NCBI GenBank assembly: GCA_963713925.1
Contig: OY970212.1
Span: forward strand, 672,001-736,000
Length of the DNA stretch: 64,000 nucleotides
Source of the DNA: an uncultured bacterium
Lineage (GTDB): Bacteria; Babelota; Babeliae; Babelales; Vermiphilaceae
Reading direction: 5' to 3'
Below, in pieces: positions 5,215-64,000 of this stretch (positions are counted from its first letter, which is position 1; each line of letters opens with the position of its first letter). Under the pieces are notes generated by a model. It saw only the letters and a list, made by a program, of their open reading frames with translations. It did no database searches and was not told the origin of the DNA. Position numbers and translations under genes: made by a program.

Positions 5215-6255
5215 CTAGTGTAGATCTATTTTATGAATAGTTACTCTATTATGGCCGTAATTGCAAACCGCTAAATAGTTCCCGTCAGGAGAAATTGAAA
5301 AGCCATGAGGGAAGCTCAATTGGGCATCCGGATTAGTCAGCGCACATTCCTTATGGAGTATATGACCGGTACTTGAATCAAAAGCATATACCACGATTGA
5401 ATCATTTCCTTGATTTGAGATAAAGATATGAGATCCGTTTGGATGAAATGCAATATTTTCCGGCACATCAAGATCCAAGGATTGAGAATAAAAGACGGGT
5501 TGAGGATTGAGAGATCCGCCCTGAGCATCAAACTTGAACGTTGCAACAGCTGCAATCGTATTGTTAGCAATAGTGCTTGCCCGTAAAGAATAGACTGCTG
5601 CTAGATAACGAGAATCAGGCGAGAAGTCTATGCCTTTGGGTTTCAGGGGATAAAAAACATTTTCCAAAGATGAGCAGAACTCAAAATTATCAGTTCCCTC
5701 TTTCTTTTTACACATATGTATGTAACCGGGTCTATTAATAGTGGTGTATGCCAAGAATTGGCAACTCGGAGAAAATCTAACGCCATGGGTGTTATATTCG
5801 CCATTTATCCCCTGTATAGTTTTTAAAAAATGTAATTGACTATCAGGACTGAGCGAATAGAGGTTTATTTTTGCACGGCTTTCTTTGAGTGGCACGTGAT
5901 CATACAAACTAACAGCATAATATTTTTTATCTTTTGATACATGATCCAGTTCAGGATTACCATTTAGATTTTGCATGACTTGTACAATTTCTGCATGAGA
6001 GCCATTAATGCGATATACATAAATCGATTTATCATAGAGGTTTGAAATAATTAACGTATGTTCGTCAAACCAACTTACACTCGTGCAGGTAGAATATCTT
6101 GATTTGCTTTCTTTAACCTGTAAGCGAAAATCAGAACTAATATTTTCCATCGTGCTGGCGGGCAGAGTGATGGAAAATAATGGTTTGTTATCTATGGTTA
6201 AGCAGTTAATAAAATTACACGCAAACAGGCTTACTATAATCATTTTATTGTTCAT
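5215..6255 (-). CDS. Secreted beta-propeller protein (lactonase/WD40-like)
   Basis: Repeated P(K/H)G.F/ISPD...LA blades; signal peptide. Confidence 0.7.
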   Translation of the reverse strand: MNNKMIIVSLFACNFINCLTIDNKPLFSITLPASTMENISSDFRLQVKESKSRYSTCTSVSWFDEHTLIISNLYDKSIYVYRINGSHAEIVQVMQNLNGNPELDHVSKDKKYYAVSLYDHVPLKESRAKINLYSLSPDSQLHFLKTIQGINGEYNTHGVRFSPSCQFLAYTTINRPGYIHMCKKKEGTDNFEFCSSLENVFYPLKPKGIDFSPDSRYLAAVYSLRASTIANNTIAAVATFKFDAQGGSLNPQPVFYSQSLDLDVPENIAFHPNGSHIFISNQGNDSIVVYAFDSSTGHILHKECALTNPDAQLSFPHGFSISPDGNYLAVCNYGHNRVTIHKIDLH

Positions 6256-6472
6256 ACAATTCTCTTTTTTTAAGCAGATCGTTAAAAAATTTATCTGGCA
6301 TTCGCTTGTTCTCGATCGAATTAGGATTCTTTTCTAAAAATTTTTTAAATGTAACTTCGATTTGAGCATAGCAAACAATTTTTTGAGAGCCAATCCCGTA
6401 TTTTGGATAAGAGCTTATACGAAAATTAAGCTTTCTAGCTAAAAAGTAATTGTGTTAAAAGTCAATTAATTT

Positions 6473-7414
6473 TTAAGCACTACATACTTCGCCCTTTTTC
6501 AAGATAACATTTGCAATGATGATCAGCTTTCGCATTACTGCAACAATAGCTACTTTAAAGCTTTTTTTGTTTGCTATTAGTCGATCATAAAAGGATTTTA
6601 AAGGAGCATAATACTTAATAGTCGTTATAGCACACATATATAATGCATTTCGAGGAATAATCCTACCGCCTTGAATGAACCGTTTGCCTGTATAGTTGCC
6701 ACTTTCTCGATCGTAAGGACAAACTCCGACAAGGGCTGCTATTTCATTATTGCTTACAGATCCAAGTTCAGGCACAAACGAAATCAATATCGCGGCCGAA
6801 GATTTACCGATTCCCGGGATTGATTCCAAAAGCTCTGTCCGTTTCTGCAGTACCGCATCTTGATCAATCAATTCTTCAATTTGTTCATCCAAAGCCTTGA
6901 TCTCTTTATTTAAAAAGAGGATCATTCTTTCGATACTTGAAACACCGAGTGCATGCGAGGGGTGTTTAAGTCGAGTTTTTTCAGTTGCCAAAAATTTGGT
7001 CAAATCCTGCTTTCGATTAACCAAAGATAGCAATGTTTCTTGGTTATGAGTTCTGCTGACTGGCTCATAATCTTGAGAATTCTTCGATGCAAATTCAGCA
7101 ATTTTTTGTGCGTCTATTTTGTCTGTTTTGCTTTTGCAACCAGTTGCGATTATAAAACCCTTTATCCTCCGTGGATCAACTATCCAACAACTATAGGAAT
7201 GTTCCTGTAATACCCGAGTAAGCAATTTTTCGTAACCACCGGTTGCCTCACATGCAATTTGCTTAATACTGTAATTGGATAATTGCTTCACAAACTTTTT
7301 TATTCCGCTTTCTGTATTGGGTATTTTAACCCATTGCTTCAACGGATGAATAAAAATGTCCAAATTGTTCTTTGAAATATCGACGCCGATAAATACTTCT
7401 GGTAGGGTAATCAT
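6473..7414 (-). CDS. IS110 family DEDD recombinase/transposase
   Basis: GVDISK, CEATG, KTDKID (DEDD residues), SIPGIG, and RESG carrying the catalytic Ser. Confidence 0.95.
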   Translation of the reverse strand: MITLPEVFIGVDISKNNLDIFIHPLKQWVKIPNTESGIKKFVKQLSNYSIKQIACEATGGYEKLLTRVLQEHSYSCWIVDPRRIKGFIIATGCKSKTDKIDAQKIAEFASKNSQDYEPVSRTHNQETLLSLVNRKQDLTKFLATEKTRLKHPSHALGVSSIERMILFLNKEIKALDEQIEELIDQDAVLQKRTELLESIPGIGKSSAAILISFVPELGSVSNNEIAALVGVCPYDRESGNYTGKRFIQGGRIIPRNALYMCAITTIKYYAPLKSFYDRLIANKKSFKVAIVAVMRKLIIIANVILKKGEVCSA

Positions 7415-7415
7415 A

Positions 7416-7625
7416 AATACCTCATCCTTGTAAACATTCGAGGTCGTATTAATACGCCTCTAGTAATTGTTCGAGGTAATTTCGTATAAGCTGATAGTCT
7501 CAAACTTTTTAGCAATCGATTACGATTAGGGTTGGCGCGAGCTCTATCAGCTTTTCCCGAGCAACTAATTTGTGAAACAATATACCGATCACAAATTAAT
7601 ACATTATCTATCAAAATTTGAATCA
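7416..7625 (-). ncRNA. IS110 bridge RNA (5' hairpin, target-binding loop, donor-binding loop); ends approximate
   Basis: Three stem-loops; guides at 7535-7528, 7513-7505, 7470-7462 and 7432-7427 match target and donor halves around the CT core. Confidence 0.88.
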
Positions 7626-7771
7626 ATTTTTAACATACAAGGGTTGGTTGTCATGCCGAACTTGTTTCAGCACCAAGGTTAAGTAGATCCTGAAATAAAT
7701 TCAGGATGACGTAACAATAAGGAACTTCTGGGATTTTCGGATAAGCTCTAAAATAAATGGGAAATCAAAGA

Positions 7772-8290
7772 TTATTGCTTATAAGCCACATGTGCTTTTG
7801 AAATCACATCGAGCGCCGTCTTTTTATCATGCCAATCCCTGACTGTGCACGATTTGCCGGCCTCAAGTTGTTTATAGGTAGCAAAGAAGTGCTGAATTTC
7901 TCGTTTAAGCTGCGAGTTAACTTGATCGATGCTCTCTATGTGTCCATAATAGGGATCATCTTGCGCAACTGCCAAAATCTTCCAATCGTGGCCCGCTTCG
8001 TCTTCCATATCAAGTGCGCCGATAGGGCGTGCTTTCAAAACGCAGCCGGGAAATGTTGGCTGGGTAATGAGCACTAAGATATCAACATGATCCCCATCGT
8101 CGGAGCGTGTTTGCGGGATAAATCCATAATCACTCGGATAAAAGAGAGTTGAATGAAGCACGCGGTCAAGATGGATCAATTCGGTATCTTCATTATATTC
8201 ATATTTGTTTCGCGATCCGCGCGGGATTTCAATCACAACGTTGACTGATTCCGGGAATTTATTACCGATGGTGAGTTTTGAAAACGACAT
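7772..8290 (-). CDS. ppa: Inorganic pyrophosphatase, family I
   Basis: EIPRGSRNKYE, YGFIPQT, DGDHVD, D.KILAV motifs. Confidence 0.95.
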   Translation of the reverse strand: MSFSKLTIGNKFPESVNVVIEIPRGSRNKYEYNEDTELIHLDRVLHSTLFYPSDYGFIPQTRSDDGDHVDILVLITQPTFPGCVLKARPIGALDMEDEAGHDWKILAVAQDDPYYGHIESIDQVNSQLKREIQHFFATYKQLEAGKSCTVRDWHDKKTALDVISKAHVAYKQ

Positions 8291-8474: not shown

Positions 8475-9860
8475 TTACTCAACAATCTTACCTTCTTTGG
8501 TCAATTGAGCATTCTTACGACCAACATACAATGCTGCGGCCATCCAAATACCCACAAGGCCAAATCCGATGAATGTACCATACATCATCAAGTCGCCGAG
8601 ATTGTGTTTGAACATATCGCTCACACGTGCACCGCCCGCTTTTGACATACGGCCACCGAACATATCAATCCAACCTTTTGATTTGAATTTAGCATCTTTG
8701 CTGGTTGGGATGTACATCATTTCTTTGGTTGGGTTACTGACTGCATATGAAAGACCTTTTGCAAGCATCATCACACCAAAAGTAGCCCACAGGAGTTGGC
8801 CTGCGTCTGGAGAGGTTAAGAAATAACCATAGAGAATTGCAAGCGCAACGCCCAAGCAAGTAGGGAACACAAGCAATGAGAAGGTCAAGCCATATTTTTT
8901 AATAATGTAGCTGGTTCCAAGCAATGCCATAACAAGCGCAAGTCCGTTGGTTGCCATTCCGTAGATTGAGAGGAATTGTTGGAAGTTTTCTTTCAACCCG
9001 TAGACTGGGTGAAGGGAAGCTTGAGACTTCATTTGGTAGTCAACGATAGTGTTGATCACTTCGTAGAAAGTTGAAACAACCAAAATACCGAGCAAATAAC
9101 CGCGAGTTAAGAGCAATTTGATACCTGCCAAGAATCCTTCAAGGAATCCTTCTTTTTTCTTTTCCGTAGCATGAGCAGTTTTGTTACCCAAACGTTCATT
9201 TTCGGGAATGACAGTCATGAACATGTTGATTGCAAACATAATAGCAAATAAGCACAGTGTGCAGAGCAAGAATAATTGCCATGGTCCGACAAAGTAGTTC
9301 AATGCTGATCCCGCAATCGCCCCAAATTGTCCCAAGGCGATGATCATCGGATAACCCTTTTTAGCGCTGTCTGCAGTGATCACACTTGCGCAGAAAGACC
9401 AGAAAAGAGCAACCAAGATTGATCCGAAAGATTCAATGGCAAAATAAGAAACCCAGCCAATTGCAGCAAGTGTTGTTTTTCCAAGGTATGCGCTACCATA
9501 TTGCGCTTGTAAGAACAAGCCGGCAACAACGCCACCAAAAATGAGAGCGTAGAATCCGCAGAGAATGTAAAACAATTTGTGTTTTTCAAATAAGTCAACG
9601 AGCTTGGAATAGACAATAACGAGCGCAAACACTACAACAACGGATAGTGTTTTTGCGAGTGGTTGGTAAAGTTGACCTTGGTGTGCAGCCCATCCGAGCT
9701 CAGCAGGGAAAGCGAGTTTGAAGAAAATTACGTCTTTTAACAAACGGACAGCCCAATAGGCGCCGATTGTAAAAAAGAATGCAAGTGCTAATATCCCGAA
9801 CTTTTTAATTTCGTCTTTTCGTAAGTCGGGATAAAAGTAGGTAACCATACTCGTAAACAT
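8475..9860 (-). CDS. TLC/NTT-family ATP/ADP (nucleotide) translocase
   Basis: About 12 TM segments; RLLKD, LFWSF, KGLSYA..NPTKEMMYIP, KFKSKGWID motifs; likely start 9860 with RBS. Confidence 0.9.
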   Translation of the reverse strand: MFTSMVTYFYPDLRKDEIKKFGILALAFFFTIGAYWAVRLLKDVIFFKLAFPAELGWAAHQGQLYQPLAKTLSVVVVFALVIVYSKLVDLFEKHKLFYILCGFYALIFGGVVAGLFLQAQYGSAYLGKTTLAAIGWVSYFAIESFGSILVALFWSFCASVITADSAKKGYPMIIALGQFGAIAGSALNYFVGPWQLFLLCTLCLFAIMFAINMFMTVIPENERLGNKTAHATEKKKEGFLEGFLAGIKLLLTRGYLLGILVVSTFYEVINTIVDYQMKSQASLHPVYGLKENFQQFLSIYGMATNGLALVMALLGTSYIIKKYGLTFSLLVFPTCLGVALAILYGYFLTSPDAGQLLWATFGVMMLAKGLSYAVSNPTKEMMYIPTSKDAKFKSKGWIDMFGGRMSKAGGARVSDMFKHNLGDLMMYGTFIGFGLVGIWMAAALYVGRKNAQLTKEGKIVE

Positions 9861-10283
9861 AGTGTTCTCACCTTTCCAAGGCAGATTATAAATCAATCAT
9901 TTTTTCAAAAATGGATGATTTATGTAATGTTATTAATTCTATTAACTTAAGATAGTTTACAGGGAATTTTCCATTCTGCAAAGAAATTTCAGCGGAGTAG
10001 GGCTTTAACGGTCGAGGTTTTCAGACTGAAAAGATCAACGCCGGACCCCCGATTTAATTATAGGATCAGAATGCAAGCCACTCCAATCAATCCATAATGA
10101 GATTGGGCAAAATAATGCGATTTTGATCTTTTGGTGAGGTTGCGAGGTCCCTAATTGAGTTTTTTTAACGAAATTGGGGTTTAATTGTCACTTTGGGGTG
10201 TACATCTTTGTATCTTATGGTACAATTAATGAAAATTGTAAAAAATTTATGACTCACGTCTATTTCTCTTCAGGATATATCAT

Positions 10284-63713: not shown

Positions 63714-64000
63714 AAAACCCCAAGGGTTTCAAACCCGGGGATGAATGGTCATCCGCTAGGCTGGATGTGAGCAAAGCCTGAAAGGGTTTGCGAAGAGCCA
63801 ATGAAAAAAGCATACTTAAAATCATGAGGTAAATATTGGAAAGGCACTCAAACAACGCATCGACTTATGATTCACTTAGTATGGATACCGAAATACAGAA
63901 AAAGAGTATTGAAGGGTGAAGTAGCAGATCGAATTAAAGAGTCGCGTGGAACTTCTCCCAAAGGACATGCGCGGAGTCACTATGATTTCGTACATTGGGA
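63714..64000 (+). mobile_element. tnpA: IS200/IS605-family remnant: left-end hairpin plus frameshifted tnpA 5' part
   Basis: Frame from 63831 reads YWKGTQTTHRLMIHLVWIPKYRKRVLKGEVADRIKE; the ATG at 63824 is out of frame; cccc..gggtttcaaacccgggg hairpin upstream. Confidence 0.75.

Follow-up and report, generated by a model that had tools for sequence, protein, structure and literature searches.

The locus analysed here raises the question whether an IS110-like element in an uncultured bacterium of the Vermiphilaceae (phylum Babelota) is directed to its insertion site by an RNA from its own non-coding end. The window, which here means the whole stretch of 64,000 nucleotides that was analysed (GenBank assembly GCA_963713925.1, contig OY970212.1, positions 672,001 to 736,000 of the forward strand), is numbered from its first letter, and the features of the locus are collected in Table 1. 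From the pairing and covariation described below, the element very probably moves in the manner of IS621: a bridge RNA of about 210 nt, predicted in the left end, would recognise by base pairing both the joined ends of the element and 14 nt within an IS5-derived MITE, and the recombinase would exchange strands at the CT that donor and target have in common. The element is a clean new example of a probably RNA-guided IS110 element and not a new system.

The element, its recombinase and its host repeat

The recombinase frame carries the RuvC-like DEDD domain (PF01548) and the Tnp domain (PF02371) of the IS110 family and scores over the NCBIfam IS110 cut-off (NF033542). Residues 8-309 align to the IS621 and ISCro4 chains (PDB 9t56 for ISCro4) with E about 1e-37, and residues were put in register with IS621 by sequence alignment to the IS621 chain. 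Homologous proteins number 327; when 50 among the 120 of them listed were aligned, D12, E56, D98, D101 and S238 did not vary. The hydrophobic wedge (Y259, M260, I263) is kept here and conserved in relatives. One of the homologs listed, at 65% identity, carries a Dependentiae name, which together with the ATP/ADP transporter gene nearby makes a Dependentiae host most likely. Domains, catalytic residues and open frame agree with the intact IS621-type recombinase of the original prediction, which had also called it compact; the size of 313 aa is correct and lies inside the range of 300-460 aa published for IS110 recombinases (PMC11208160, available text).

The genome (1.32 Mb) holds three copies of the element, two of them identical and the third with two substitutions, and all three encode an identical protein in an open frame. 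Each copy is inserted at the same CT in a different MITE copy, so that both further copies occupy the same MITE target sequence as the first; all three are intergenic and spare the host genes. The ends are fixed independently, as identity to the other two genomic copies stops exactly at the CT pairs, and the CT-core junctions and all strings that had been reported for this locus were confirmed by direct sequence check. With a CT dinucleotide core at both ends and three of three copies at one site of one repeat, the element falls in the IS110 family; the frame is preceded by 227 bp and followed by 28 bp, and this long left end, in which the predicted RNA lies, and short right end place it in the IS110 group as opposed to IS1111. 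In the window the MITE with its element lies between genes for a beta-propeller protein (5215-6255, minus strand) and an inorganic pyrophosphatase (7772-8290, minus strand), neither of which is broken, and a TLC ATP/ADP transporter gene follows (8475-9896, minus strand). Elsewhere in the window a short stretch at about 63855-63944 on the plus strand (G000:C1 735855-735944), within a frame of 74 aa, matches the Y1 (HUH) transposase family above the Pfam threshold and is possibly a remnant.

Table 1. Features of the element and its host repeat (positions in the window).
Feature	Positions	Strand	Remarks
IS110 element, 1,197 bp with both CT cores	6445..7641	-	ends set by copy identity
Recombinase ORF, 313 aa	6473..7414	-	D12 E56 D98 D101, S238, wedge Y259 M260 I263
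Predicted bridge RNA	7416..7625	-	ends inferred from junction promoter and last stem
5' hairpin	7566..7598	-	in MFE and centroid structures
Target-binding loop	7488..7553	-	outer stem 7553-7544/7497-7488, inner stem 7527-7523/7518-7514
Left target guide, 9 nt including core	7528..7536	-	8 Watson-Crick pairs and 1 wobble here; 9/9 in third copy
Linker equivalent to IS621 G72-U73	7512..7513	-	G in 16/16 elements
Right target guide, 7 nt including core	7505..7511	-	7/7 in all three copies
Target-loop handshake dinucleotide	7503..7504	-	first base pairs donor position 7 in 15/16, own target in 1
Donor-binding loop	7418..7478	-	outer stem 7478-7473/7423-7418, inner 7460-7453/7448-7440, bulged A7444
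Left donor guide, 9 nt	7462..7470	-	9/9; varies with donor in relatives
Right donor guide	7427..7437	-	ACAAG 7431-7427 plus U7432 (contiguous) or AU 7437-7436 (discontiguous, IS621-like)
Donor-loop handshake dinucleotide	7425..7426	-	first base pairs target position 7 in 16/16 (27/27 insertions), own donor in 1
Junction-promoter -35, TTGACT	6460..6465	-	17 nt from -10 across circle junction
Junction-promoter -10, TATGTT	7632..7637	-	would form promoter only at joined ends
Sub-terminal inverted repeat, 8 bp, right-end arm	6453..6460	-	partner 7635-7628
Host MITE, left part	7642..7748	-	16-bp TIR 7748-7733, 3-bp duplication 7751-7749
Host MITE, right part	6411..6444	-	right target, TIR 6426-6411, duplication 6410-6408
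REP-like hairpin pair, CGTC/TGTC tails outside	7649..7711	-	inside MITE, abuts left target; sequence and DNA fold

The host repeat, of about 143 bp with 16-bp inverted ends and 3-bp duplications, is present in 20 TIR-bounded copies in the genome, the 17 empty ones measuring 140-268 bp. Identical 3-bp flanks were found in 15 of the 20 copies and in all 14 where both flanks are TWA (TAA or TTA; shuffled pairing 2e-5). Of 261 genomes examined in the phylum, 35 contain the 16-mer end and none matched the reversed control, and in four related genomes the same 16-bp ends with a TWA duplication bound elements of 861-864 bp; both proteins scanned from these score over the IS5-family cut-off (NF033580), and the elements are candidates for the IS1031 subgroup. 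The TIRs, the TWA duplications and these same-ended transposase elements of relatives bear out the original view of the target as a MITE. An IS5 transposase for the MITE was not found in this genome by tblastn with positive controls (completeness 95.75%). The hairpin pair inside the MITE resembles, in tails and layout, the head-head CGTC REP dimers described in the available part of PMC3733652. Two long MITE variants (G000:C1 1277391-1277551 and 1121058-1121218) contain an insert of about 53 bp like the repeat targeted by the related elements of genomes G156 and G191, small repeats thus being nested within each other. In three other genomes (G232, G107, G012) MITEs with the same 16-bp ends have unrelated, hairpin-rich interiors and lengths of 163-441 bp (L145-L148).

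The predicted bridge RNA and its covariation in relatives

Folding of positions 7416-7625 returned the three parts that had been described for the non-coding end, namely a 5' hairpin and two modules of stem and internal loop (z -3.15; one of 200 shuffles as good), with the guides inside the loops as in the IS621 bridge-RNA layout. For the two loops alone (7416-7557) the z was -4.33 and none of 200 shuffles folded as well. No more than two of the four guide matches turned up in any of 20,000 dinucleotide shuffles of the leader, two being present in 44 of them, and the spacing of the guides is within one base of that in IS621 (31 against 30 nt and 43 against 42 nt). An Rfam 15 search of the bridge-RNA region gave four weak matches, all far below the gathering score.

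Relatives were collected within the phylum, where 19 of 261 genomes have a match at E 1e-40. Ends were located by a donor-only motif in 29 of 39 loci with at least 38% identity and missed in 10; after removal of L029 (no right flank) and L012 (a duplicate of L011), the covariation set comprised 27 insertions of 16 distinct elements. A metagenome scan returned mostly distant IS110s, with four of 80 loci at 38% identity, two of which were used in the covariation set, and a genome-contig scan gave one locus only, the same as L012. At the loci L021, L031 and L119 (G073), which make up a clade further removed, the motif rule did not recover the usual CT core or left end. L013 (G120:C9) shows a 19-bp direct duplication of the left end of its element.

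Across the 16 elements 20 of the 31 stem pairs change on both sides, which none of 500 shuffles matched, and 85.6% of stem positions are paired, as against 34-40% in slid controls. The outer stem of the target loop is 93.7% paired, with changes on both sides in six of ten pairs. Its inner helix is only 57% paired in the alignment; folded per sequence, the inner 4-bp stem has four of four pairs in 11 elements and three of four in the other five. Target loops agree with the flanks of their own element at 8.44 of 12 non-core positions and with those of other elements at 3.71, and none of 100,000 permutations reached the own-flank value; as the relatives are kin, this permutation test and the shuffle tests overstate significance. 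The own target is the strict best in 10 of the 16 elements and best or tied in 14. Counted in without being strict best were L038 (a register slip), L013, L018, L023, L036 and L002, and the left-target match is poor in L032 and L034 (off-consensus copies), L002 and L036. The fixed register failed for the left target guide of L038 and for the left donor guides of L004, L023 and L018. Donor guides likewise change along with the donor sequence.

The guide strings of the original prediction were found where it had placed them, with changes at the borders of some guides. Its left target guide, CCAACCCU (7535-7528), is present as given, the full guide being 9 nt long (7536-7528), and the first G forms a wobble in two copies and a Watson-Crick pair in one. 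The left donor guide, ACAAUUACU (7470-7462), stands unaltered with nine of nine matches. UACAAG (7432-7427), proposed as the right donor guide, is found in the sequence; the guide may instead be discontiguous, as in IS621 (AU 7437-7436 with ACAAG 7431-7427), and AU followed by a bulge of 1-4 nt was seen in this region in all 16 elements. In L019 a two-base compensatory change links right donor guide and donor. Pairing of the donor-loop handshake base with target position 7 uses three different pair types across the elements, and such handshake pairing to non-cognate DNA is the pattern favouring insertion in IS621 (PMC11208158, PMC13626964, as far as the available texts go).

The linker at 7493-7478 was considered as an additional guide, given its resemblance to the MITE TIR (2 mismatches in 16), and rejected; it was taken for scaffold with a chance likeness, because relatives aimed at unrelated targets have nearly the same linker. 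In the outer donor-loop stem, the 3' strand (7423-7418, minus strand) overlaps the probable ribosome-binding site that immediately precedes the start of the recombinase. GAGG is kept at this site in most relatives, and folding could damp translation.

By eye, the relatives L019/L030/L035, L038, L016/L028/L033, L014, L015 and L017 are aimed at small palindromic repeats that differ from one another, and a separate guide pair goes with each. Of the five copies of one relative that were inspected, one, L032 (G156:C6:252517-256446), is inserted in an apparent coding sequence, with a poor left-target and a good right-target match, and is possibly a natural off-target insertion. Low conservation of target loops has been reported before in the literature available. 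Turnover of the guides was compared with that of four-fold degenerate sites in four pairs chosen among the 14 closest, which have members in common. Target guides are identical at 1 of 12 positions in L014/L016, with 59% identity at four-fold sites (binomial 0.0004), at 6 of 12 in L004/L023, with 81% (0.014), and at 1 of 12 between the present element and L011, with 42% (0.013); the fourth pair is opposite (7 of 12 against 0.51 at four-fold sites). Donor guides are unchanged in close pairs whose target guides diverge. The faster turnover of target guides is a lead on natural retargeting and not a result.

Right-guide length, site choice and activity

The right target guide is best read, from the sequence of the loop and its targets, as 7 nt (7511-7505), longer than the 4 bp of wild-type IS621 and equal to the extended length that was engineered there and improved specificity (PMC11208160). 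The original prediction of a naturally long right-target guide holds in this measure and not for the 9 nt it had given: GCUAAAAAG (7513-7505) matches nine of nine bases in the window copy only, and in the other two copies the ninth base meets T. Naturally longer right guides have already been reported in IS110 elements (PMC11208160). In 15 orthologs Watson-Crick matches of guide and right target number 14, 13, 11, 9 and 7 at +1 to +5, 2 and 2 at +6 and +7 beyond the guide, and 3 and 4 at the next positions. The 7-nt reading rests on this drop after +5, on T opposite the ninth base in two of three copies, on the invariance of G7513 and on the kept wedge residues. Pairing of the same system over 9 nt, with a 16-nt target, is unlikely. 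It would account for the nine of nine matches here and in L011/L012, of which L012 duplicates L011, for the Watson-Crick pair at +6 in all three copies and for pairing at +6 in 10 of 15 orthologs when wobbles are counted, whereas the ninth base is G in all 16 elements whatever the target, meeting C in the window copy alone of this genome's copies, and Watson-Crick matches at +6 and +7 are two of 15 each. Its counterpart in IS621, G72 of the linker G72-U73 ahead of the right target guide, is in the syn form and contacted by the Tnp domain, and at position 14 the duplex is split by a hydrophobic wedge (PMC11208158, available text), the residues of which are conserved here.

The 7-nt guide could be set against the occupancy of sites in the genome itself. 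With the three copies removed in silico, and with the 14-nt register taken from IS621 and wobbles allowed, the genome contains exactly three sites without mismatch, all filled, and 14 with one mismatch, all empty. Among 27 repeat anchors the match is perfect in three of three filled and none of 24 empty ones (Fisher p 3.4e-4; 4 of the 24 are partial or divergent repeats). Seven of the ten copies whose left target is intact are empty, and their differences lie at +3, +4 or +5 (p 0.008), mostly owing to the length of a T-run. Since these positions lie beyond the native 4 bp of IS621, the result suggests that the extended right guide decides site choice; it rests on three insertions, and the guide may have drifted to fit occupied sites.

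Two other accounts of the same occupancy were weighed. Site choice might need the MITE hairpins besides base pairing, as proposed for ISPpu10, where a target stem-loop is reported to raise efficiency (preprint 10.64898/2026.03.19.712850, available text). The REP-like hairpin pair directly adjoins the left target, and several ortholog flanks are palindromic by eye; but guide match alone divides filled from empty sites, the empty repeats bear the same hairpins, and the left target of ISPpu10 lies within the stem, whereas here the REP-like arms end before it. That site choice needs the hairpins is less likely than not; since this genome has no perfect site without a hairpin, they may still have a helper role. 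It is highly improbable that one old insertion was multiplied by IS5-type transposition of the MITE, which would make the copies uninformative on guide choice. All three copies are indeed bounded by MITE TIRs, and at two of them the 3-bp duplications match; yet the MITE shells of the three copies differ by 11, 12 and 16 substitutions, with a 53-bp indel in two comparisons, and the elements by 0-2 in 1,197 bp, which argues for separate recent insertions, and the search for an IS5 transposase in this genome described above came back empty. Co-transposition inside the MITE was rejected on the far greater divergence of the shells.

With site choice by guide pairing retained, the following course of movement may be proposed. 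Read-through from the co-oriented frame that lies upstream of all three copies would yield a little RNA and enzyme; in IS621 read-through RNA is reported to suffice for excision, after which the junction promoter drives the RNA (PMC13626964, available text). Circularisation would bring together TTGACT-17-TATGTT, a putative promoter with at least 9 of 12 consensus matches, judged by sequence, in 15 of 16 elements; a promoter scan of the linear sequence expectedly called none at the junction. Among the 16 elements, the sub-terminal inverted repeat measures 4-9 bp in 14 and is missing in two; its 8 bp here exceed the 2-3 bp of the IS110 group and reach the range of 7-17 of IS1111 (PMC11208160, available text), and its length may be constrained, as the left arm overlaps the -10 box. 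The donor loop would then pair with the joined ends, and the target loop with 7+2+5 nt of the MITE, in line with the complementarity and covariation observed. D12, E56, D98 and D101 together with S238 would cut the top strands, and handshake bases would drive the exchange forward, by the chemistry of IS621, in which composite DEDD/serine sites cut and exchange strands (PMC11208158, available text). Landing in an intergenic repeat would spare host genes, as seen for the three copies. According to the available text of a preprint, IS621 releases a single-stranded circle and hence copies and does not cut (10.64898/2026.08.31.748434). That the element is no longer active is quite improbable: the frame is open, all catalytic residues and both promoter halves are intact and the protein is identical three times over, against which stand the lack of a perfect empty target in the genome and the lack of a circle joint in contigs from two of four DNA runs, which cover parts only, none spanning, and give no evidence either way. 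Among the sequencing runs listed for the stretch there was no RNA run.

Comparison with known systems

Long right guides, REP or MITE targeting and a protein of this size are all already published. New here is a natural test, in which three mismatch-free 14-nt sites are all filled and 14 one-mismatch sites are empty. The mechanism of bridge recombination is unchanged by these findings; bridge recombinases are now mined as editing tools, and the native 7-bp right guide has the length that improves IS621 specificity, so that the genome is a small natural test of length. When 72 bridge-recombinase orthologs were screened in human cells, a product could be detected for 18, and the activity of one could be quantified (Perry 2025, 10.1101/2025.05.14.653916, available text); with so few orthologs active, a distant clade with fully read guides would be a usable candidate set. 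A bolder and rather improbable view takes the clade as a natural library for retargeting that is unusually strict in its choice of sites, in which target guides outpace synonymous sites while the donor guide is almost fixed, the native 7-bp right guide would discriminate single mismatches in vivo, and one-base T-run slips would let MITEs escape; if true, natural guide reprogramming would become testable in this clade, which would offer a high-fidelity recombinase without guide engineering. Searches for literature on IS110 elements or transposases in this phylum (Dependentiae, Babela, Babelota) found none, most subscription papers and the ortholog supplements of PMC11208160 lying outside their range.

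The element is like IS621 (Durrant 2024, PMC11208160; Hiraizumi 2024, PMC11208158; Hiraizumi 2026, PMC13626964; available texts) in its DEDD and serine residues, CT core, RNA in a long left end and order of 5' hairpin, target loop and donor loop, and also in its 9-nt left guides, conserved linker Gs, bulged A, handshake bases, junction promoter and repeat target. IS110 elements often target repeats, and IS621 targets REPs (PMC11208160). Unlike IS621, it has a distant protein (E about 1e-37), a native right target guide of seven of seven matches, a length that was engineered into IS621, a donor-guide bulge of 4 nt, and an IS5-derived MITE instead of the E. coli REP as target. It shares with the ISCro4/IS622 model the recognition of 14 nt in both target and donor and the handshake guides (Perry 2025, available text); ISCro4 is 88% identical to IS621 and was tested in human cells, whereas the element here belongs to a distant clade known from sequence alone.

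Among elements aimed at repeats, the nesting seen here, in a small intracellular bacterium, of an IS110 element within an IS5-derived MITE with REP-like hairpins follows a pattern known from Coxiella burnetii, where IS1111 in QMITE2 is an IS110-family element at a REP inside a MITE, in 20 of 21 copies (Wachter 2018, PMC5896051, available text). The Coxiella element is of the IS1111 group, with its RNA in the right end and long STIRs, and there the REP is of the GTAG kind and duplications measure 7-11 nt. The present element has its RNA in the left end, and its host MITE has hairpins resembling the CGTC type and duplications of 3 bp. ISPpu10 is likewise an IS110-group element aimed at an intergenic repeat, with strict right-guide pairing reported (10.64898/2026.03.19.712850, available text); its left target is part of the target hairpin, whereas here the left target comes after the REP-like arms. 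The MITE itself is like the IS5 family in its 16-bp TIR and TWA duplication and unlike it in that its cognate transposase was not found in the genome.
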